From the IMG/VR virus record IMGVR_UViG_3300045988_170760, positions 1 through 64,000 of that record: 64,000 bases of DNA; one strand, given 5' to 3'. Origin of the DNA: a virus. The notes below the pieces were generated by a model. It ran no database searches and had not been told where the DNA came from. It saw only the letters and a list, made by a program, of their open reading frames with translations. A program made the translations under genes and the position numbers. Below are positions 177-41,049 of the stretch, piece by piece; positions within the stretch are counted from its first letter, which is position 1, and every line of letters starts with the position of its first letter.

Positions 177-695
177 TTAATCCCCCTCCCCTTTTAAAAC
201 CTTTAAAGCTTGTAAATATTCTTTACCTTGAAATCCTGTATCGTGCTTACATTCTACCATGTGTTCTGTAAAATTTAACTTTCCTTTATATTTGTTACCA
301 GTAATATCATAAGTATCATCATCTATTATAACATAATTTTCAGTTAATAAATTATTATCAAATAAATATTGCTCAATTTCATAACCTCTTATCATATCTT
401 TATGTCTTTTTGTAATGTCAAAAGGTATTTCATATCCTAAATTATTGAATATTTTTTCTTTGACTTTATTTATCCCTTTTTGATTTAACCTCCAAGTACT
501 GGATAAAACAACTTTTATATCATCTTTAAAATGTTCTATTAATTTACATAATAAATTTAAACTAATTGGGTCAAAAATATCTAAATCCTTATGCATTATT
601 TCATAGGCTCTGTCTCTACCTAACATTTCAAAAGTATAAATAGTATAATTCATGTTATTTAAAACACCATCTATATCCAAAAATATTAATTTCAT
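177..695 (-). CDS. HAD-superfamily phosphatase (DxDGxL / SSTWR / IIDDD motifs; resembles HAD domains associated with RNA-repair systems)
   Basis: ORF track. Motif I is FLDIDGVLN, motif II is LSSTWR and motif IV is IIDDD. Its stop abuts the polymerase start. Confidence 0.6.
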   Translation of the reverse strand: MKLIFLDIDGVLNNMNYTIYTFEMLGRDRAYEIMHKDLDIFDPISLNLLCKLIEHFKDDIKVVLSSTWRLNQKGINKVKEKIFNNLGYEIPFDITKRHKDMIRGYEIEQYLFDNNLLTENYVIIDDDTYDITGNKYKGKLNFTEHMVECKHDTGFQGKEYLQALKVLKGEGD

Positions 696-11378: not shown

Positions 11379-12515
11379 TTACTCCTTTCCTATTTTTATT
11401 AAATGATTTGCATACAATATAATATTTTTGATTAAATTATCCACTTCAAATTCTTTTGTATCAGGCGAAATACTAATCCTTAAAGAACCGTTTAAAAATT
11501 CATTAGGAACTCCTATTTCTTTTAATACATATGATGGTTCAGAAAAATTAGAATGACATGCAGATGCAACAGAAACCATATCACCTTTACAAGAAAGCAT
11601 TAACTGTAGTGTTTCACTATTTATATTCTTAAAAGCAATATTAACAATACCTAGAGCATTAGAATTAATAATAATATTATCTCCGAAAGCAGTTTTTAAT
11701 TTCTGAACTATTTTATCTTGTAAGCTATTCATATATGTGATATTAAAATTTGTCCAATTATTATAATATTTTTCTAAACACAACGCTAACATATAGTTTC
11801 CAAATATATTTTCTGTTCCTGCTCGCAGATTACTTTCTTGCCCACCTCCACAAATTAATGGTTCCAATTCTACATAAGTTTTAACATACAAAAATCCAGT
11901 ACCTTTTAATGCCCCTACCTTATGCCCAGAAAAAGATGCCATGTCAATTGTATCTAAATTTAAATCTATTTTACCTAATGCCTGAACTGCATCTGTATGA
12001 AATAGTATCCCTTTTGTATGAGCTAAATGAGCTATTTCATATATATCTTGCATAGTTCCTAATTCGTTATTAATTGCCATTATACTTATAAGTTTTGTTT
12101 TATCATTAATTTGTTTTTTTATATTTTCTATGCCAATATAACCCTTATTATTAGGTTTTACATAGCGAATAGTATATCCAAATCTTTCTAATTGCTTACA
12201 AGTTTCTAAGATAGCAGGGTGTTCTATAGTAGAGGTAATTAATTCAGCTTCTTCTGGCTTATATTTTAACATAACACCTTTAAGTGCTGTATTATCACTT
12301 TCTGAGCCTCCACTCGTAAATATTATTTCATCCGTAGAACACTGCAAAATATTAGCAATTTTTTGTCTTGCTTTTGATAATAAATCTGCTGCCTTTATTC
12401 CTTCTTCATGAGTAGAAGATGGATTATTAAATATACCATCATCTCTTTTTAAAATACATTGTTCAAGTATTTCTATGTCTGTAGGATAAGTAGAAGCATA
12501 ATCAAAATAATACAT
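11379..12515 (-). CDS. Cysteine desulfurase, NifS/IscS-like class V aminotransferase
   Basis: FDYAST N-terminus, HTDAVQALGK, PLP-lysine motif SFSGHKVG, and catalytic loop SVASACHS. Confidence 0.85.
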   Translation of the reverse strand: MYYFDYASTYPTDIEILEQCILKRDDGIFNNPSSTHEEGIKAADLLSKARQKIANILQCSTDEIIFTSGGSESDNTALKGVMLKYKPEEAELITSTIEHPAILETCKQLERFGYTIRYVKPNNKGYIGIENIKKQINDKTKLISIMAINNELGTMQDIYEIAHLAHTKGILFHTDAVQALGKIDLNLDTIDMASFSGHKVGALKGTGFLYVKTYVELEPLICGGGQESNLRAGTENIFGNYMLALCLEKYYNNWTNFNITYMNSLQDKIVQKLKTAFGDNIIINSNALGIVNIAFKNINSETLQLMLSCKGDMVSVASACHSNFSEPSYVLKEIGVPNEFLNGSLRISISPDTKEFEVDNLIKNIILYANHLIKIGKE

Positions 12516-13384: not shown

Positions 13385-14278
13385 TTATAAACCAACTTTA
13401 TAATTTCTAAATACATTGCGAGATTTATTTTGTAGTTCTTTTAAATATATTTGTGTTGTAGCAGGATTACTATGACCTAATACATCTTGAATTTCTTCTA
13501 TTTGAAATCCATGTTTATACATATCTGTAGCTGCTGTCCTTCTTAGACTATGTGCAGAAATTGGTTTTGTTATGCCTGCTTTATTCTTTATTTTTTTTAT
13601 AGTAGTATCAATACTTTGAGCAGACATCTTTTTACCTGTATTAGATACAAACAAATAATTTAATTTAGTAGAAGTCCTAGTTTTTAAATACTGTTTTATA
13701 CATTTTGTCACAAAAGAATTAAAATATATTTCTTGCATTTTTCCACCTTTTCTAGTAACAATAATAGTAGAAACTTCTTCATTATTTTCATCTTTAAATA
13801 CAGTAAAAGTATCTAAAGTTAAATTTATTAATTCAGAAATTCTTATACCTGTATTTAAAAATATTGAACAAAAGGCTTTTTCTCTAGGTGTTTTGCATTC
13901 CCTTAAAAAATCTATAATTTCATCTTCTGTTAAATATGTTGTGTGTTGTGGATTTACTATTTTTTTTGTTGTTTTAAATAAATCACTACTAGCAATAATA
14001 TTTTTGTTAAAATCTAATTCAGATTTTGATAACAAAAATGTATAAAAACTACTAACAGCACTAAGTTTTGGTCTTATTGAATTTTCAGATATTCCAGTGT
14101 CTAATAGATAATTCTTCCATTCATAATAGTCATCAATATTTAATTCTTTGAAATCATCTAGTGTTGTAATTGATTTAAATTCAAATAATTCTTTAAGATT
14201 ATCTTTATATCTTTTTCTTGTACCATCACTTCTTTTTGTATTAATAAAGTTGTTTAAAATTTCATCTATATTACTCAT
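13385..14278 (-). CDS. Tyrosine recombinase/integrase (XerC/D-like)
   Basis: ORF track 13385-14311; start taken at MSNIDEI. Catalytic motifs AHSLRRTAAT and LGHSNPATTQIYL (R..HxxR..Y). Confidence 0.85.
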   Translation of the reverse strand: MSNIDEILNNFINTKRSDGTRKRYKDNLKELFEFKSITTLDDFKELNIDDYYEWKNYLLDTGISENSIRPKLSAVSSFYTFLLSKSELDFNKNIIASSDLFKTTKKIVNPQHTTYLTEDEIIDFLRECKTPREKAFCSIFLNTGIRISELINLTLDTFTVFKDENNEEVSTIIVTRKGGKMQEIYFNSFVTKCIKQYLKTRTSTKLNYLFVSNTGKKMSAQSIDTTIKKIKNKAGITKPISAHSLRRTAATDMYKHGFQIEEIQDVLGHSNPATTQIYLKELQNKSRNVFRNYKVGL

Positions 14279-14301
14279 ATCTCTTCCCTCTTTCTGTATA
14301 T

Positions 14302-14330
14302 AGTATAGCATAGATGGAGATAAAAGTCAA
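14302..14330 (-). promoter_or_regulatory. sigma-A type promoter (TTGACT-N17-TGcTATACT), leftward, drives recombinase
   Basis: Reverse complement: TTGACT (14330-14325), 17-nt spacer, TATACT (14307-14302). Confidence 0.55.
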
Positions 14331-15303: not shown

Positions 15304-15861
15304 TTATCTTCCTTCCTTTTCTTTAAAAAATTTTTCTAAATAATCTTTTTGTATATCTTCAAAAGAAATTGGTTTATAATTAATTCTTTCCACACATACA
15401 CAAAGATGATTATTAGATTTCATATCTGGGTATTCACTTTCTAATAATGCATCATGAATATGACCATGGATATTGAATTCATTATCTTTAATATATTGAG
15501 GCTCATGAGAAAGTATTACATATTTAAAGTTGTGGTTTCTGTCTACATAATAAAGCTTTTGGGGGCTATCTAACACTAAATCAAATCCTATATTTTCCCA
15601 AGATTGTTTCCCTCTATCTCTGTCATGATTACCTCTAATAATAACTTTTATACCTTTTAATTGATTGCATATTGCATGACTTTGCTCAGCATTGCCAAAA
15701 GAAAAATCTCCTAAAAAATATATAGTATCATCATCATTGACTGTATAATTCCAGTTTTCTATGAGTTTCTTATTCATCTCTTCTATAGATGAGTAAGGTC
15801 TTTTACAATAAGGAATAATACTTTTATGATAAAAATGAGTATCACTAATGAAATATATCAT
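15304..15861 (-). CDS. Metallophosphoesterase (calcineurin-like)
   Basis: ORF track 15304-15900; start taken at MIYFISDTHF after an AGGAGA SD. Motifs DTH, LGDF, RGNHD, SHEP and GHIHD. Confidence 0.75.
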   Translation of the reverse strand: MIYFISDTHFYHKSIIPYCKRPYSSIEEMNKKLIENWNYTVNDDDTIYFLGDFSFGNAEQSHAICNQLKGIKVIIRGNHDRDRGKQSWENIGFDLVLDSPQKLYYVDRNHNFKYVILSHEPQYIKDNEFNIHGHIHDALLESEYPDMKSNNHLCVCVERINYKPISFEDIQKDYLEKFFKEKEGR

Positions 15862-16028
15862 TCTTATTCTCCTTTCTAATAAATAAATTTTTATTTGCAT
15901 AAGAGTTTCTACTAAATATAGGTTATTGGCAGGTGTGCCCTTTCCTGCATTTCTTTTGACCTATAAGGTGCGTGGCAGCACTTATCTCCACTTCAATCCC
16001 TATATTAATATAAAATTTAAGACAATTT
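15862..16028 (-). promoter_or_regulatory. Structured, locally GC-rich 5' leader of the metallophosphoesterase mRNA (candidate cis-regulatory RNA, class unknown)
   Basis: About 165 nt lie between the predicted TSS and the ATG. Minus-strand RNA can form UAUAGGU/ACCUAUA (7 bp) enclosing GCAGG-AAAGGGCACA-CCUGC. A competing hairpin AUAAGUGC-UGCCAC-GCAC(C)UUAU is also possible. Confidence 0.35.
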
Positions 16029-17302: not shown

Positions 17303-18028
17303 TTATTCAACTCCTAACAATTTATCTATATAATCTCTATCTTGAGTGAATATAGGGATGTCTAAATCTATATCCCATTTCCCATCTTTTTTGATTACAC
17401 AACTGCCCCTTTTAAAATCTGTTCTATATTTGTCAAAATTAATATTATTTTCTTTCCATAATATTTCCTGTATTTCATTACAGTTTTTATTTTGTAATTG
17501 AGAGTGTGAAAAATATGCCTGACCTGCTGACTGAATTGCGTTACGTGTCGCATCCTGTTGCCTCCAAATAAAATAATTACAGACTTCTTCCTTTGGGATA
17601 TTAAATGCTCTACTGTCAAATGTAGCTTTCCATCTTTTATTATTAAATTTATAACTAAATCCGTTATATTGTAATTTATCTTCTAAAATATTATTAAATT
17701 TTAGTGTAGTTAAACTTGCTGTAATAGATATAATTTTAGATAAATTATTTTGGAACCATGCTTGTGTATCATTATTATCCCAGTCAGTTAATAATAAAGA
17801 TATCTCATCCGATTGAGTATATCCTAATTTACATCCAGGGATTTCTTTACATAACTCTAACGTAGTATTTTGCATCAATCTCATAAAATCTCCGTCATAT
17901 GGTTTTTCTAGTCCTTTTGTAAAAGTATGAAAAGCTCTTCCATCTATTCTTACAATGACAGGGGTTCTACATGTTAAATAATTACGTGTAACAAATTCAT
18001 ATCTTTTCATTCTGTCTCCTAATTTCAT
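17303..18028 (-). CDS. Thg1-like protein (tRNA-His guanylyltransferase family, 3'-5' nucleotidyl addition / tRNA 5'-end repair)
   Basis: ORF track 17303-18061; start taken at MKLGDRMKRYE after AAGGAGG. Family signature: DRMKRYE...PVIVRIDGRAFHTFTKGLEKPYD...GYTQSDEISLLL. Confidence 0.8.
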   Translation of the reverse strand: MKLGDRMKRYEFVTRNYLTCRTPVIVRIDGRAFHTFTKGLEKPYDGDFMRLMQNTTLELCKEIPGCKLGYTQSDEISLLLTDWDNNDTQAWFQNNLSKIISITASLTTLKFNNILEDKLQYNGFSYKFNNKRWKATFDSRAFNIPKEEVCNYFIWRQQDATRNAIQSAGQAYFSHSQLQNKNCNEIQEILWKENNINFDKYRTDFKRGSCVIKKDGKWDIDLDIPIFTQDRDYIDKLLGVE

Positions 18029-18029
18029 T

Positions 18030-18308
18030 TTATTTACCTCCTTTATTTCTAAAATGTACACTATTAAAAGGTATATCTGGAAATTCTTTTAAATATATAG
18101 TAGTATGCCATCCACCTACATCTATACGTTCTATAGTATATTCATGATTTAATTTTAAATATTTAGTAGCTATTTTCCTTTCATATGTCATTCCGTTATC
18201 TGGAAAAGCAAATATTACTTTTGAACCTATTGCAGTATAAATGTCCATTGTATCATCATTTTTAAAAAATTTATCTATATTTTCAAAATCTTCTTTACTT
18301 AATATCAT
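18030..18308 (-). CDS. hypothetical protein
   Basis: ORF track; abuts the Thg1-like gene. Confidence 0.45.
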   Translation of the reverse strand: MILSKEDFENIDKFFKNDDTMDIYTAIGSKVIFAFPDNGMTYERKIATKYLKLNHEYTIERIDVGGWHTTIYLKEFPDIPFNSVHFRNKGGK

Positions 18309-30815: not shown

Positions 30816-30844
30816 TTGACTTTGAAAAATAAATATGTTATAAT
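30816..30844 (+). promoter_or_regulatory. sigma-A type promoter (TTGACT-N17-TGtTATAAT), first rightward promoter
   Basis: TTGACT at 30816-30821, 17-nt spacer, TATAAT at 30839-30844. Confidence 0.7.
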
Positions 30845-37120: not shown

Positions 37121-37520
37121 ACCATCTTATATGAAAATTGGATATTGTAAAGGATATTGCAAAGAAACTAAGGAATGGATATATGGCTGGCATTGGACAG
37201 ATACACCATATGTTTGTTTTTATAATGGAGAGAAAATCAGGCATTTTATAAGAGTTCAAGTTAATTATGATTGGAATTTGACTGAACAAAGAGATTATGA
37301 AGTTGAGCCTGAAAGTATAGGTTATTATATTGGAAGAAATGATAGTAATAACATTCCAATGTTTTTAGGTGATAAGGTACATTTTACTAAGAATAAAAAA
37401 GACTATGAAGGTAAAATAGGGTACAATGTAGAAACTGCGGCTTATTGTATATTAGGAAATCCTTATGGAATAATAGTAGATTTTAGTAAGTTATCTAATA
37501 TAGAAATAAAAGATATTTAA
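37113..37520 (+). CDS. YopX-like protein
   Basis: ORF track 37092-37520; start taken at MNRPSYM after AAGGAGA. EWIYGW...VEPESIGYYIGRNDSNNIPMFLGDKVHF resembles the YopX family core. Confidence 0.45.
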   Translation: MNRPSYMKIGYCKGYCKETKEWIYGWHWTDTPYVCFYNGEKIRHFIRVQVNYDWNLTEQRDYEVEPESIGYYIGRNDSNNIPMFLGDKVHFTKNKKDYEGKIGYNVETAAYCILGNPYGIIVDFSKLSNIEIKDI

Positions 37521-37642
37521 TAAAATAAATATCTTTTAAGACATAATGCTAGGAAGCATTGAGTTTACTAGCATTAAAAAATGAACTCGAAGATAATATG
37601 GAATTAAATGTAGTTAAGCTTCGAGTTCAATAAAATAAATAT
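37519..37642 (+). repeat. Intergenic element: two stable hairpins bracketed by a 14-bp direct repeat AATAAAATAAATAT
   Basis: Direct repeats at 37519-37532 and 37629-37642. Hairpin 1 is AATGCTAG/CTAGCATT (37545-37575). Hairpin 2 is GAACTCGAAG/CTTCGAGTTC (37583-37628). Confidence 0.6.
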
Positions 37643-37658
37643 ATGGAGGTAATAATAA

Positions 37659-38159
37659 ATGATTATTTTATTTGATATGAACAAAGAAATGTGTGATGCC
37701 TGGAACAAAGAATTTAAAGACTGTAATGATGTAAAGGTATTAAATATAAAACTTGACGAATTACAACCTGTAGATTATTTAGTAACAGCAGGTAATAGTT
37801 ATGGAATAATGAATGGTGGTATAGATTTAGCAGTAAGAAATTTGTTTGGAACAAGATTACAAGATAGGGTACAATGGGGTATTATAAGAAAATATAAAAA
37901 ATTATATTTACCTGTAGGAGATAATATAGTAGTTTATGGAAATAATAAATATAAAAATGTTATTTATGCACCTACTATGGAATTCCCAAAATTTATTTCT
38001 AAAGATTGTATATCTAAAATATTTTTAAATTGTTTATTAACAGCTAAGAATGGAAACATAGCATGTTGTGGTTTGGGAGCATTAACTGGAGGGCTTACTG
38101 TTACTACAGTAGCACAGGAAATGAAATTAGCATATAATAAATTTAAAAAAATAAATTAA
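37659..38159 (+). CDS. Macro-domain protein (ADP-ribose binding/hydrolase fold)
   Basis: YLVTAGNSYGIMNGGIDLAVRNLFG resembles the macro-domain N..G.GG(I/V)D..I signature. 166 aa is the size of a single domain. Confidence 0.5.
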   Translation: MIILFDMNKEMCDAWNKEFKDCNDVKVLNIKLDELQPVDYLVTAGNSYGIMNGGIDLAVRNLFGTRLQDRVQWGIIRKYKKLYLPVGDNIVVYGNNKYKNVIYAPTMEFPKFISKDCISKIFLNCLLTAKNGNIACCGLGALTGGLTVTTVAQEMKLAYNKFKKIN

Positions 38160-38179
38160 AATCGAAAGGATGATATATA

Positions 38180-38374
38180 ATGGATAGTTATGTAACTATA
38201 GAAAAAGAAGAAATATATGATATCTTATGTGGTTGTGGATTGATGACTATTTATACTAAAGAATATGGTTCATTAGAAATGACTGATGAAGATAGTATTA
38301 TGGAGGATTTTATTCCAGCAGTAGTAGACTATATCAATGACAAATTAGATAATACGAGATTATTTTTAGAATAA
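38180..38374 (+). CDS. hypothetical protein (acidic)
   Basis: ORF track. Confidence 0.4.
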   Translation: MDSYVTIEKEEIYDILCGCGLMTIYTKEYGSLEMTDEDSIMEDFIPAVVDYINDKLDNTRLFLE

Positions 38375-38377
38375 GTA

Positions 38378-38406
38378 TTGACATTGAATATAAAATATGG
38401 TATAAT
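38378..38406 (+). promoter_or_regulatory. sigma-A type promoter (TTGACA-N17-TGgTATAAT), rightward internal promoter
   Basis: TTGACA at 38378-38383, 17-nt spacer, TATAAT at 38401-38406. Confidence 0.7.
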
Positions 38407-38431
38407 AAATCAAAGAAGGAGGATAAAATAT

Positions 38432-38647
38432 ATGGATTTTGTAAAATTAATAATATATCTTAATGACGGAGTAGTTCAAGTAAATATAAGTGAAGAAATG
38501 TCAAGAAATCTTTCTACCGCAGTTAAAGATAAATCAGAAGATAAATTACGAGAATATTTTCATAATTTAGAGGATACACTTTCAGGTAAAAAGATTGATA
38601 TAGAACTAGATGATTTAAAAGGATTTGAATTTAAGTTAGGCAAGTAA
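38432..38647 (+). CDS. hypothetical protein
   Basis: ORF track 38378-38647. That upstream part is the promoter. The ATG at 38432 follows AAGGAGGA. Confidence 0.45.
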   Translation: MDFVKLIIYLNDGVVQVNISEEMSRNLSTAVKDKSEDKLREYFHNLEDTLSGKKIDIELDDLKGFEFKLGK

Positions 38648-38691
38648 TACTATAATACTCCTTAATTAGGATATTATAGTGGGGTGATAAT

Positions 38692-38859
38692 GTGTGTGAT
38701 GACAAAATTTCTAATGCTTGCTACAATTGTCCGTTTTTTATACAAAGTTGTTCATTTTGTCAATTAAATGATGAATATATAGATGATTGTATAGATGTAG
38801 TTAAGGAGTTGTATAATAATTATGAAGTTGAAAATTATAGAATTTATGAAAAATCATAA
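38692..38859 (+). CDS. small Cys4 zinc-ribbon-like protein (55 aa, GTG start)
   Basis: My translation is (V)CDDKISNACYNCPFFIQSCSFCQLNDEYIDDCIDVVKELYNNYEVENYRIYEKS. The SD is weak and it overlaps the ligase start by 38 nt. Confidence 0.3.
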   Translation: MCDDKISNACYNCPFFIQSCSFCQLNDEYIDDCIDVVKELYNNYEVENYRIYEKS

Positions 38860-39928
38860 GAACTGGGAAGAATTACTAACTAAAAAACCATATTGTTTAA
38901 AAGTTAATAGGCATAATGGATATATTTTATTGAAATATGACCAAATACATTCTGATTTTTCTTTAGATATTGTTAAAGAAGCTAGGGGAATTATAATAAA
39001 AGAAGAATGTTATAAGGTAGTATGTTTTCCTTTTATTAAATTTTTTAACATAGATGAAACTTATGCAGACAAAATAGACTGGAATACAGCAAAAGTACAG
39101 GAAAAAATAGATGGCTCATTAATTAAATTATGGTGTGACGAAAAAAATGGAATAAAAACATGGAATGTATCTACAAATGGATGTATAGATGCTTTTGCTT
39201 GTGATTTAGGTACTGATATATGTCCCTATAAAACTTTTGGGGAATTATTTATGTCCGTTTTTAATTTTAGAACTTTTCAAAAAATGAACCCAAACTATAC
39301 TTATATGTTTGAATTAGTATCTCCTTATACAAAAATTGTAGTAGATTATCCCAGAACAAAAATATATCATTTAGGAACTAGGGATAATATTAGTGGAAAA
39401 GAGTTAGAAGAAGATATAGGTGTCACAAAGCCAAAACTATATCCATTAAAGACTGAGGAAGAAATTAGAGAAACAGCAAATAAGTTACCTTTCAATGAAG
39501 AAGGTTATGTTGTAGTAGACAAAAATTATCATAGAGTAAAAGTTAAATCTCCAGCTTATGTTAATGCACATAGGTTAATTAATAATAATATAATAAATAC
39601 AGTAAAGGTACTTGATTTAATTATACAAAATGAGCAAGAAGAATTTTTATCTTATTTTCCTGAATATAAAAATGTATTTAAAGACATAGAAAGAAGATAT
39701 TTGAATTTTAGAAAAAGATTAAAGACAATAGAGGAACGCATACTAAAATTGAAAAAGAAAGCTAAAGATAGAAAAGATTTTGCTATTAAGTTAATAAAAA
39801 GAATGCCAGATTATAAAGAAATGGGTTTTATGCTTTATGATGATAAAATAAAAAATTATGAAGAATATTTGAATAATTTAACTACTAAAAAAATTATAGA
39901 AGGGATAGAAAGATATGAAAACATATGA
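38822..39928 (+). CDS. ATP-dependent RNA ligase (T4 Rnl1-like nucleotidyltransferase)
   Basis: Motif I is QEKIDGSL (KxDGS), motif IV is EEGYVVVD and motif V is HRVKVKSPAY. The N-terminal LKYDQIHSDF...EARGIII...KFFN matches the RNA_lig_T4_1 pattern. Confidence 0.75.
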   Translation: MKLKIIEFMKNHKNWEELLTKKPYCLKVNRHNGYILLKYDQIHSDFSLDIVKEARGIIIKEECYKVVCFPFIKFFNIDETYADKIDWNTAKVQEKIDGSLIKLWCDEKNGIKTWNVSTNGCIDAFACDLGTDICPYKTFGELFMSVFNFRTFQKMNPNYTYMFELVSPYTKIVVDYPRTKIYHLGTRDNISGKELEEDIGVTKPKLYPLKTEEEIRETANKLPFNEEGYVVVDKNYHRVKVKSPAYVNAHRLINNNIINTVKVLDLIIQNEQEEFLSYFPEYKNVFKDIERRYLNFRKRLKTIEERILKLKKKAKDRKDFAIKLIKRMPDYKEMGFMLYDDKIKNYEEYLNNLTTKKIIEGIERYENI

Positions 39929-40115
39929 AAAGCTTTATGCTGTAAGAGAAAAGAAAACAAAAAAATTAATTAGTAAAAGACATTCTAATCCATTTTTTAC
40001 TTACAAAAGAAATGCTGAAAGTCAAATAGAAGAAATGGAGAGCCCATATTGGGGATATAAAGAAGGAGAATTAGAAATTGTTACTTTTAGATTAGAGGAG
40101 ATAGAATATGAATAA
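39915..40115 (+). CDS. hypothetical protein (66 aa) between ligase and kinase
   Basis: ORF track; overlaps both neighbours. Confidence 0.4.
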   Translation: MKTYEKLYAVREKKTKKLISKRHSNPFFTYKRNAESQIEEMESPYWGYKEGELEIVTFRLEEIEYE

Positions 40116-41040
40116 GTTTTATATGATAGTAGGTTTACCTGGTTCTGGTAAATCAACTATTAGTAATGAATTGAATGGAGAGGTTTTTTCTTCTGATGCT
40201 TTAAGGAAAGAATTATGGGGTGATGAAAATACTCAAGGCGATAATACTTTATTGTTTAATGAACTTCATAAACGTATAGAAAAAGGATTAAAAGAGGGGA
40301 AAAATTGTATATATGATGCAACTAATATTAATGCTAAAAAAAGAATACAATTTTTAAATAAAATAAAAAATATAAAATGTGAAAAAATTTGTATATTAGT
40401 AGCAACAGATTTTAATGTATGTTTACAAAGAAATAATTTAAGGGAAAGAAAAGTTCCATATGAAGTAATTAAGCGAATGTATTTTAATATTGATATTCCT
40501 CAATATAGAGAAGGATGGGATAAGATTATTATAAAAAGGACACAAGATGAGATGAACGATTATGATATATTTAAATTTGTAGATTATTTAGAAACAATTA
40601 ATCATGATAATCCTCATCATTTACTAACAATAGGAGGACATATTCAGGCAGTTGTAAAATATATAATGGATAATTATCAATTTAAATTTGCAGGAGATAT
40701 AGAAAGATTAGAATGTTTATTAAGAGCAGCTTTATATCATGACATTGGCAAAAAGATTACTAAAACATTTATTAATAGTAAAGGAGAAAAAACAGAAGTA
40801 GCTCATTATTATAATCATGAGAAAGTATCTGCTTATATGTATATAATGTATGAACATACAGAAGAATTAAAAGATGTAGATAAAATTCTTTATATAGCTG
40901 ATTTAATTGGACTTCATATGAAAATGCATTGTTATAATGGTGATAAAGAAAAAGCACATGAAAGAATAAGAAAGTTGGTAGGACAGAGAGAATTTGAAGA
41001 TTTATGTATTTTAAATGAAGCTGATATTATTTGTGGGTAG
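40108..41040 (+). CDS. Polynucleotide 5'-kinase (T4 Pnk-like P-loop) fused to an HD-domain phosphohydrolase
   Basis: Kinase motifs GLPGSGKST, YDATNINAKKR and VPYEVIKRMY parallel the T4 Pnkp kinase. The C-terminal HHLLTIGGH...LYHDIGK...HYYNHE is the HD signature. Confidence 0.7.
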   Translation: MNKFYMIVGLPGSGKSTISNELNGEVFSSDALRKELWGDENTQGDNTLLFNELHKRIEKGLKEGKNCIYDATNINAKKRIQFLNKIKNIKCEKICILVATDFNVCLQRNNLRERKVPYEVIKRMYFNIDIPQYREGWDKIIIKRTQDEMNDYDIFKFVDYLETINHDNPHHLLTIGGHIQAVVKYIMDNYQFKFAGDIERLECLLRAALYHDIGKKITKTFINSKGEKTEVAHYYNHEKVSAYMYIMYEHTEELKDVDKILYIADLIGLHMKMHCYNGDKEKAHERIRKLVGQREFEDLCILNEADIICG

Positions 41041-41049
41041 GAGGATAAA

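Follow-up and report, generated by a model that had tools for sequence, protein, structure and literature searches.

An Rnl1-family RNA ligase and a kinase-HD protein form a predicted RNA repair cassette in a low-GC phage

A 64-kb window of a low-GC phage of ~121 kb (120.8 kb, ~25% G+C; IMG/VR record IMGVR_UViG_3300045988_170760) was analyzed, and all coordinates without another label are positions in that window. By every available sequence and structure criterion, plus-strand positions 38822-41040 are an RNA heal-and-seal repair cassette. It comprises a gene for an Rnl1-family ATP-dependent RNA ligase of 368 amino acids (aa) at 38822-39928, an open reading frame (ORF) of 66 aa at 39915-40115, and a gene at 40108-41040 for a 310-aa protein in which a polynucleotide kinase domain is followed by an HD domain (kinase-HD). 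The 66-aa ORF overlaps the end of the ligase gene by 14 nucleotides (nt) and the start of the kinase-HD gene by 8 nt (ATGAATAA), and all three genes lie where an initial annotation of this DNA, made from the sequence alone, had placed them. Together they probably constitute an early-transcribed operon with which this Bacillota phage would repair breaks in RNA, most likely tRNA, through a pathway of HD, kinase and Rnl1 activities. The computational analysis established which domains and catalytic residues are present, the synteny, and the match to the promoter consensus. The region is another case of a widespread and already annotated type of RNA-repair cassette.

In the proposed pathway, the HD domain at the C terminus of the 310-aa protein would convert a 2′,3′-cyclic phosphate or a 3′-phosphate to a 3′-OH. 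The N-terminal P-loop kinase would then move a phosphate from a nucleoside triphosphate onto the 5′-OH, with D30 serving as general base and with K15 and Mg stabilizing the transition state, and the ligase would join the 3′-OH and 5′-PO4 ends through a K95-AMP intermediate. The end-healing enzyme can be described as a domain-order-swapped relative of the characterized HD-Pnk enzymes: its domains are ordered as in T4 Pnkp, with a CCA-enzyme-type HD domain where T4 has HAD. From the data below we infer the substrates, the activities and the anti-defense role of the module. A role against anticodon nucleases of the host, or against other ribotoxins, is suggested by analogy with T4 and is less certain than the enzymology.

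The ligase matched PF09511 (RNA_lig_T4_1) with E=3.3e-11 and 43.9 bits, above the gathering cut-off of 28.3, and phrog_562 with E=1e-51. In a sequence search of PDB its only relatives were T4 Rnl1 structures (2c5u, 5tt6 and 9do4, E ~2e-12). KIDGS was located at residue 95, EGYVVV at 227 and KVKSPAY at 240, and the full motif set consists of K95-I-D-G-S (motif I), F-E164-L (motif III), E227-G-Y-V (motif IV) and K240-V-K242 (motif V). Residues 36-323 align with T4 Rnl1, placing R55, K72-F-F74, K95-I-D97-G98, E164, E227-G228 and K240/K242 opposite their T4 counterparts; in the phmmer alignment to 2c5u, K99-E-D-G, E159, E227-G228 and K240/K242 are the T4 partners, and motifs I, III, IV and V are in register. 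Enzymes of the Rnl1 family have a specific C-terminal helical domain that is implicated in tRNA specificity; here the alignment extends past motif V to residue 323 of the 368 (T4 residue 325), with low similarity in that part. The essential residues of T4 Rnl1 were reportedly defined by Wang, Ho and Shuman in 2003.

The kinase domain of the 310-aa protein (residues 1-147, 40108-40548, plus strand) contains GSGKST at residue 12, DATNI at 70 and RERKVP at 112. The protein matched AAA_33 with E=1.8e-20 over residues 6-127 and phrog_505, ‘polynucleotide kinase’, with E=1e-16, and the kinase portion alone (positions 12-167 of 851) of NCBIfam bacter_Pnkp (TIGR04075) was matched. The closest PDB sequence match of the domain was the kinase of Clostridium thermocellum Pnkp (CthPnk; 4gp7, E=1e-11). 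An AlphaFold model of the whole protein, built on 42 homologues, had a pLDDT of 94 and a pTM of 0.92, and its kinase domain was matched by Foldseek to CthPnk (TM 0.77, rmsd 1.7-2.0 Å, E=2e-9), to T4 Pnk (TM 0.74), and also to the fungal Trl1 kinase and mammalian PNKP. The catalytic residues of CthPnk are Lys21, Ser22, Asp38 (the general base), Arg41, Thr80, Arg120 and Arg123 (PMC3902929), and these align with K15, S16, D30, R33, T72, R112 and R114, respectively. The set is complete, comprising a P-loop G9-x4-G14-K15-S16, the general base D30, R33, D70-A-T72-N and the lid residues R112 and R114. These catalytic residues are invariant (S16 and T72 nearly so) in the 42 homologues, down to 45% identity, and K15, D30, R33, R112 and R114 are also invariant in Bacillus phage proteins of ~36% identity. 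Searches with the RNA_lig_T4_1, AAA_33/PNK and HD profiles agreed with the three domain assignments of the initial annotation, and every motif that it had cited was present in the ligase and kinase-HD translations.

It is very improbable that the 310-aa protein is instead a small-molecule (nucleotide or metabolite) kinase/phosphohydrolase that acts together with the neighboring dNMP kinase. Both AAA_33 and HD are broad superfamilies, weaker matches to 6PF2K and gluconate kinase-like folds were obtained, and nucleotide-metabolism genes adjoin the kinase-HD gene; against this, the top sequence and structure matches were all polynucleotide or tRNA kinases, D30, R33 and T72, which are acceptor residues specific to polynucleotide kinases, are conserved, and operonic linkage to an RNA ligase recurs in both gene orders.

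The HD (HDIG-type) metal-dependent phosphoesterase domain occupies residues ~160-310 (40585-41040, plus strand). HD PF01966 matched residues 198-275 with E=8e-6 and 26.5 bits (cut-off 22), and in NCBIfam this part of the protein was matched by HDIG (TIGR00277) and by the HD of actinobacterial CCA-transferase. Its signatures are HH at 170-171, H178, HD at 211-212, H237, H270 and D306; among homologues, H171, H178, H211-D212-x-G214-K215, H233, H237, H270 and D306 are invariant or nearly so, and the metal ligands are intact. Profile searches detected neither a HAD domain nor a Metallophos domain in the 310-aa protein. When a profile of the HD family alone was compared with PDB, the best matches were the HD domains of class II tRNA nucleotidyltransferases (‘Poly A polymerase’, 3wfp-3wfs, E=4.5e-11), with Cas3 HD as a distant runner-up (E=7e-4). 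The same family profile was aligned with hhalign to the N-terminal region of the polynucleotide kinase of phage RM378 (RM378 PNK; 94.8%, E=4.9e-8, 118 columns), and the HDxGK, HExVS, HM and D motifs fell in register with the HD domain of the window. This relationship required profile-profile comparison, as tblastn with the HD domain alone did not reach RM378. Foldseek with the full-length 310-aa model was dominated by kinase matches and returned no HD-domain neighbors.

The HD domain is likely a 2′,3′-cyclic/3′-phosphoesterase, judging by its homology to two biochemically characterized HD domains, those of class II tRNA nucleotidyltransferase (a 2004 study, as cited in PMC6961547) and of RM378 PNK. 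According to the initial annotation, 3′ end healing had moved from a HAD to an HD domain. The kinase-HD architecture stands, and simple replacement of HAD does not, since the same phage carries a standalone RNA-repair HAD and a calcineurin-like phosphoesterase. The former, which had been noted earlier, belongs to the ‘Swiss Army Knife’ type of RNA-repair HAD phosphatases and is encoded on the other genome arm (177-695, minus strand; PF18143 HAD_SAK_2, E=2.2e-18), and the latter lies at 15304-15900. HAD_SAK_2 is described as a family of standalone RNA-repair phosphatases in phages (PMC7824862), and the HAD at 177-695 is a possible partner or alternative 3′/2′-phosphatase for RNA repair. Several phosphoesterases may thus share the 3′/2′ end-healing steps, which weakens the idea that HD simply took over from HAD.

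At the DNA level, a 3-kb region spanning the module had no similar record among the phage records of GenBank/INPHARED, and scans of IMG/VR with the kinase-HD protein and with the 66-aa ORF returned a single match, the source contig, given as IMGVR_UViG_3300045988_167160. At the protein level, tblastn identified full-length kinase-HD matches (30-35% identity) in 37 GenBank phage records, comprising one Lysinibacillus phage and 36 Bacillus phages of 143-217 kb, mostly 157-170 kb (Tsamsavirus, Kenyattavirus, PK-3, FADO and others). Many of these genes are annotated as ‘polynucleotide kinase’ and others as ATPase, beside an RNA ligase, and in the three Bacillus phages inspected the RNA ligase gene lies directly upstream of the kinase-HD gene with abutting or overlapping stop and start codons. 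A large (metagenomic) protein database contained 3077 kinase-HD relatives at E<=1e-5, many of them 300-320 aa long and encoded on ~120-kb contigs. Among species-representative genomes, relatives were present in 161, mostly from Clostridia, Lachnospiraceae, Christensenellaceae and Bacilli, and cultured strains with kinase-HD include Pseudobacteroides cellulosolvens, Acetivibrio mesophilus, Roseburia and Cytobacillus. In the best 80 loci from the scan of species-representative genomes, an Rnl1-like ligase was encoded on the same strand within 3 kb of kinase-HD in 39 (~20 abutting upstream and ~16 abutting downstream). The recurrence of the ligase with kinase-HD in either gene order is the strongest argument, apart from homology, that the two act in one shared pathway. 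The architecture is no novelty of this phage: HD-type healing is established, and the kinase-then-HD order is common in phages and Bacillota.

Cassettes of kinase-HD and ligase on large contigs and in complete bacterial genomes make a housekeeping role conceivable, and the phage itself encodes tRNAs and a non-canonical RdRP-like/YonO-type RNA polymerase. The module could on these grounds serve the phage's own RNA processing (tRNA or transcript maturation or splicing, or recycling of RNA fragments) rather than the countering of ribotoxins. We consider this unlikely. Counter-defense is the precedent for the Rnl1/Pnkp pair (PMC2610378), the two phage tRNA genes detected with ARAGORN were reported without introns, and the host-type consensus promoter of the unit fits early counter-defense, although it is not proof of it.

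Several observations weigh against the proposed pathway. The ligase scored 65.8 bits (E=3.7e-18) against TIGR02308, far under the equivalog cut-off of 242.25; taken with the PF09511 match, this makes it a member of the Rnl1 family and not an equivalog of T4 RnlA, and its substrate preference may differ from that of T4 Rnl1. In two diverged relatives from different samples, L007 and L013, the same 1-nt insertion interrupts motif I of the ligase gene (L007:2990-3010 and L013:2205-2225), which reads AAA ATA GAC C GGx there and AAA ATA GAT GGC in the window (39104-39118). Frame 0 stops after KID-RVFN, and the +1 frame is open to the usual ligase end in both contigs. Either the two share a ligase pseudogene and have kept kinase-HD, or the ribosome is recoded by +1 at CGG, a very rare codon; with the kinase-HD gene intact in both, the healing enzyme may also act without this ligase. 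The Runella ligase that is linked to HD-Pnk sealed no standard RNA or DNA substrate tested (PMC6097658). The literature searched contained no description of a kinase(N)-HD(C) enzyme and no biochemical or genetic data for any member, whose function is assigned by homology, and the primary HD-Pnk papers were known through citing work.

A title cited in PMC6097658 presents Runella HD-Pnk as healing both DNA and RNA ends, which bears on whether the substrates of the cassette are DNA ends, alone or together with RNA ends, in phage DNA repair or replication. The D. radiodurans PNKP was assayed on DNA (PMC1997131), CthPnk was crystallized with DNA oligonucleotides (PMC3902929), and enzymes of DNA-precursor metabolism, a dNMP kinase and a DUF7768/deoxyribosyltransferase-like protein, are encoded downstream. 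The ligase, however, belongs to the Rnl1 RNA-ligase family and not to the DNA ligases, related Bacillus phages have a separate ATP-dependent DNA ligase nearby, the nearest relatives of the HD domain are those of tRNA nucleotidyltransferases, and the phage has other tRNA-directed repair genes (Thg1-like and SAK-HAD). A role at DNA ends is unlikely, and repair of RNA remains our preferred reading.

The 66-aa ORF (39915-40115, plus strand) is a real gene. Its dN/dS of 0.24-0.33 indicates purifying selection, the AF2 model of its product is a compact beta-beta-alpha-beta fold (pLDDT 87), and syntenic versions of 64 aa and 72 aa in relatives are 52% and 39% identical to it. A profile search gathered ~39 clusters at 90% identity (61-72 aa) in which Y4, A9-V-R11, N25-P-F27, A34-E35 and E54-x-V-x-F-x-L-x-E62 are invariant, and an exhaustive search with the ORF yielded only four 50%-identity clusters. 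Its position between ligase and kinase is kept in four lineages: the window, L006, L007 and L013. When 38822-41040 was compared with L006:2721-4933, the ligase was 93% identical (dS 0.38), the 66-aa ORF 52% and kinase-HD 77% (dS ~1.1-1.3), a mosaic divergence that points to a recombination breakpoint at the junction of the ligase and the 66-aa ORF. The 66-aa ORF evolves much faster than the neighboring genes.

It is missing from L008 and L009, whose kinases are 66% and 55% identical to that of the window, and in these relatives the ligase stop codon overlaps the kinase start (...TATGAGTAA). In the window, the ATG of the 66-aa ORF occupies the position at the ligase end that the kinase start uses in L008 and L009, and its stop codon recreates an ATGAnTAA overlap with the kinase. 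The junctions look like those of a neat insertion into a translationally coupled ligase/kinase junction. The ORF was found neither in the three Bacillus phages inspected nor in any of the 80 genomic cassettes, and tblastn of the ORF against phage records gave no match. The initial annotation had called the ORF conserved, which holds within a narrow sub-clade and fails more widely, in close relatives and in Bacillus phages.

A fold search with the model of the 66-aa protein gave no PDB match below E=0.4, and in BFVD it gave weak matches only, the best of which (E=4e-3) were to uncharacterized small phage proteins. The 3274-aa protein P0123, a strong-looking phmmer match, was rejected when pairwise comparison resolved it into a sum of dozens of weak repeat matches. 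Four proteins 41-48% identical to the ORF (P0133, P0148, P0125 and P0141) are encoded in ~45-kb phages with a serine recombinase; their neighbors are small early ORFs, with no adjacent ligase or kinase. More distant members of the family occur in yet another phage. The 62-aa chimera P0156 (encoded within L016:2161-3572) has a C-terminal half nearly identical to a 65-aa subfamily of the small ORF and a Cys-rich N-terminal half, and in this single case, from a different phage, the ORF ends exactly at the start of an RtcB RNA ligase gene.

The initial annotation had proposed a specificity or adaptor role for the 66-aa protein. In favor of a subunit dedicated to the repair module, whether for specificity, as an adaptor or in regulation, are the place of the ORF exactly between the two enzymes, its translational coupling to both, purifying selection, a position kept in four lineages, and the chimeric relative that abuts RtcB. 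The proposal is not supported in view of the lineages in which ligase overlaps kinase directly, the Bacillus phages and 80 genomic loci that lack the ORF, the homologues in contexts without ligase or kinase, its fast divergence relative to both neighbors and a fold that gives no functional lead; such a subunit now seems improbable. The best reading is that the ORF is a mobile, lineage-specific accessory gene, expressed alongside the module and dispensable for its chemistry. There is also a slim chance that the family defined by YAVR...NPF...E-V-F-L-E is a portable modulator of RNA-ligation pathways and that the kinase(N)-HD(C) proteins, whose rigid two-domain architecture (pTM 0.92) is widespread in Bacillota and their phages, form a biochemically uncharacterized class of Pnkp; the 66-aa protein might then tune repair, for instance by targeting it to particular tRNAs, or shield repaired RNA from re-cleavage. 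The patchy occurrence of the ORF is a natural presence/absence experiment on whether small phage genes wedged into an operon modulate their neighbors.

Upstream of the module, at 38378-38406 on the plus strand, lies a perfect sigma-70/sigma-A type promoter sequence (TTGACA, a 17-nt spacer and a TG-extended TATAAT; TTGACA-17-TGnTATAAT, 12/12 consensus match), which is predicted to function as a promoter. The window contains 18 matches to TTGACA-17-TATAAT when no more than one mismatch is allowed, against 3.0 expected, and none of 100 shuffles reached 18. These sites follow gene orientation: 12 of 13 minus-strand sites precede ~30 kb, and the plus-strand sites at 30816, 38378 and 61765 are on the rightward arm. 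Gene orientation and the sign of the GC skew change at ~30 kb, and the strands of the promoter-like sites match this switch, which would mark a divergent early-transcription region. In L006, L007 and L008 the homologous module is also preceded by a perfect copy of the promoter, and in three Bacillus phages (L001-L003) such a copy stands directly before the ligase.

After the promoter, the order of the unit is a 71-aa ORF, a 55-aa four-Cys ORF, the ligase, the 66-aa ORF, kinase-HD, a hydrophobic 74-aa ORF, the dNMP kinase and the DUF7768 protein. No intrinsic terminator-like site was found within 37400-41500. The 71-aa ORF (38432-38647, plus strand) starts with the ATG at 38432 behind an AAGGAGG ribosome-binding site and has syntenic homologues in L006-L009 (25-100% identity); the TTG at 38378 belongs to the -35 hexamer and is not a start codon, and a longer, TTG-started version of the ORF had no Pfam or PHROG match. 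The 55-aa ORF (38692-38859, plus strand; CxxC-x6-CxxC, zinc-ribbon-like) overlaps the start of the ligase gene by 38 nt, and C10, C13, C20 and C23 are invariant in L007, L008 and L013. It is present in relatives with the 66-aa ORF and without it (L008), and is thus tied to the ligase more consistently than the 66-aa ORF is. The initial annotation had given the module its own promoter region at 38378. The site itself is perfect and conserved, and rather than serving the module alone it heads a longer unit, in which two further small conserved ORFs come first. The hydrophobic 74-aa ORF (41050-41274) and the dNMP kinase gene (41315-41875; DNMK PF21448, E=3.7e-9; phrog_139, E=6e-31) are co-oriented with the module on the plus strand, and their synteny is kept in L006, L008 and L009. 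They probably share its transcript and probably lie outside the repair chemistry.

Other genes of the phage support the theme of tRNA repair, namely the HAD described above, a Thg1-like gene, a Macro-domain gene and the tRNA genes. The Thg1-like tRNA 3′-5′ nucleotidyltransferase (17303-18061, minus strand; PF04446, E=5.1e-33; Thg1C, E=2.6e-5) suggests that this phage may also repair the 5′ ends of tRNAs; Thg1-like enzymes are reported as sporadic, from a few jumbo phages (PMC7824862). The Macro-domain gene (37659-38159, plus strand; PF01661, E=9e-7; phrog_2613, E=1e-34) keeps its place just before the repair-operon promoter in both L006 and L008, and its product may process ADP-ribose derivatives linked to RNA 2′-phosphate removal or may counter ADP-ribosylating defenses. 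The tRNA region (47538-47738, plus strand) encodes tRNA-Pro(UGG) and tRNA-Thr(UGU). With ligase, kinase-HD, SAK-HAD, Thg1-like and Macro genes bundled together, this phage clade would possess a fairly complete tRNA-repair toolkit.

A 919-aa ORF at 43381-46140 (plus strand) matched PF05183 (RdRP) with E=2e-12 and is presumably a YonO/crAss-like single-subunit RNA polymerase. The RdRP-like gene of relatives (L007:6578-8936 and L009:6307-7962) was called as 551 aa. Behind it in L007 lies a gene for a NUMOD4/HNH homing endonuclease, an arrangement that suggests that the polymerase gene has been split or invaded. A tyrosine integrase encoded at 13385-14311 (minus strand, E=1e-35), in a phage contig of ~121 kb, suggests that the phage is temperate or integrates. 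At 11379-12515 (minus strand, E=2e-63) lies a class V aminotransferase/cysteine-desulfurase-like gene.

The region adds one more well-resolved example of what is read as phage counter-defense RNA repair and does not overturn current understanding. The kinase(N)-HD(C) family is very common and apparently has never been characterized biochemically; the kinase-then-HD order differs from that of the characterized HD-Pnk enzymes and merits characterization, for which isolated Tsamsa-like phages are an easy entry point.

Among known systems, T4 Pnkp and Rnl1 share with the window the heal-then-seal logic and the kinase(N)-phosphatase(C) order. They differ in that the T4 3′ phosphatase is a HAD (DxDxT) and that of the window an HD domain, in that the window genes are in one operon, and in that the window ligase is well below the T4 RnlA equivalog threshold. 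CthPnkp/Hen1 provides the closest solved structure of the kinase domain, with the same catalytic residues, and unlike the window system it has a calcineurin-type binuclear metallophosphoesterase and a fused ligase domain. No Hen1 partner, and no methyltransferase of any kind, was seen among the ten ORFs scanned in 37659-43365.

A PNKP subfamily that combines 5′-kinase with 3′-HD phosphohydrolase was proposed earlier, and RM378 PNK was then the sole PNKP shown to have its 3′-phosphatase in an HD domain, as stated in PMC1997131, which cites Blondal et al. 2005 (JBC 280:5188) for that enzyme. RM378 PNK (Rm378p110; 361 aa, HD 35-94, kinase 189-325) is annotated as a ‘probable poly A polymerase’. 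Like the window protein, it is a phage P-loop 5′-kinase with an HD 3′-phosphohydrolase (kinase domains 27% identical, E=1e-13), and its phage also has an Rnl1-family ligase. It differs in having HD first and kinase second, in its low sequence identity, and in its setting, with the Rnl1 homologue ~7 kb from the PNK gene on the opposite strand and no operon. The HD-Pnk of Runella slithyformis (Munir & Shuman 2017, as described in PMC6097658) has its 2′,3′-phosphoesterase HD domain at the N terminus and its kinase at the C terminus, and its ORF overlaps that of a ligase encoded upstream. The two domains and the overlap with a ligase ORF recall the window, whereas the N-terminal HD, the cellular system and a cluster that adds Tpt1 and an MTase-HIT protein set it apart. 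The D. radiodurans PNKP likewise combines HD and kinase and differs in its N-terminal HD and cellular origin (PMC1997131). All characterized HD-Pnk examples are thus HD(N)-kinase(C), and the order in the window is reversed (kinase 6-127, HD 198-275).

The nearest counterparts are the ligase/kinase-HD pairs of large Bacillus siphophages (Tsamsavirus, Kenyattavirus, PK-3 and others), which are known from annotation and for which no biochemical characterization was found. They have no small ORF between ligase and kinase, and their neighbors are S8 peptidase, ClpP and DNA ligase genes. They share with the window the same kinase-HD architecture over the full length (31-35% identity, 99-100% coverage), a ligase gene directly upstream with overlapping stop and start codons, and a perfect sigma-A promoter.

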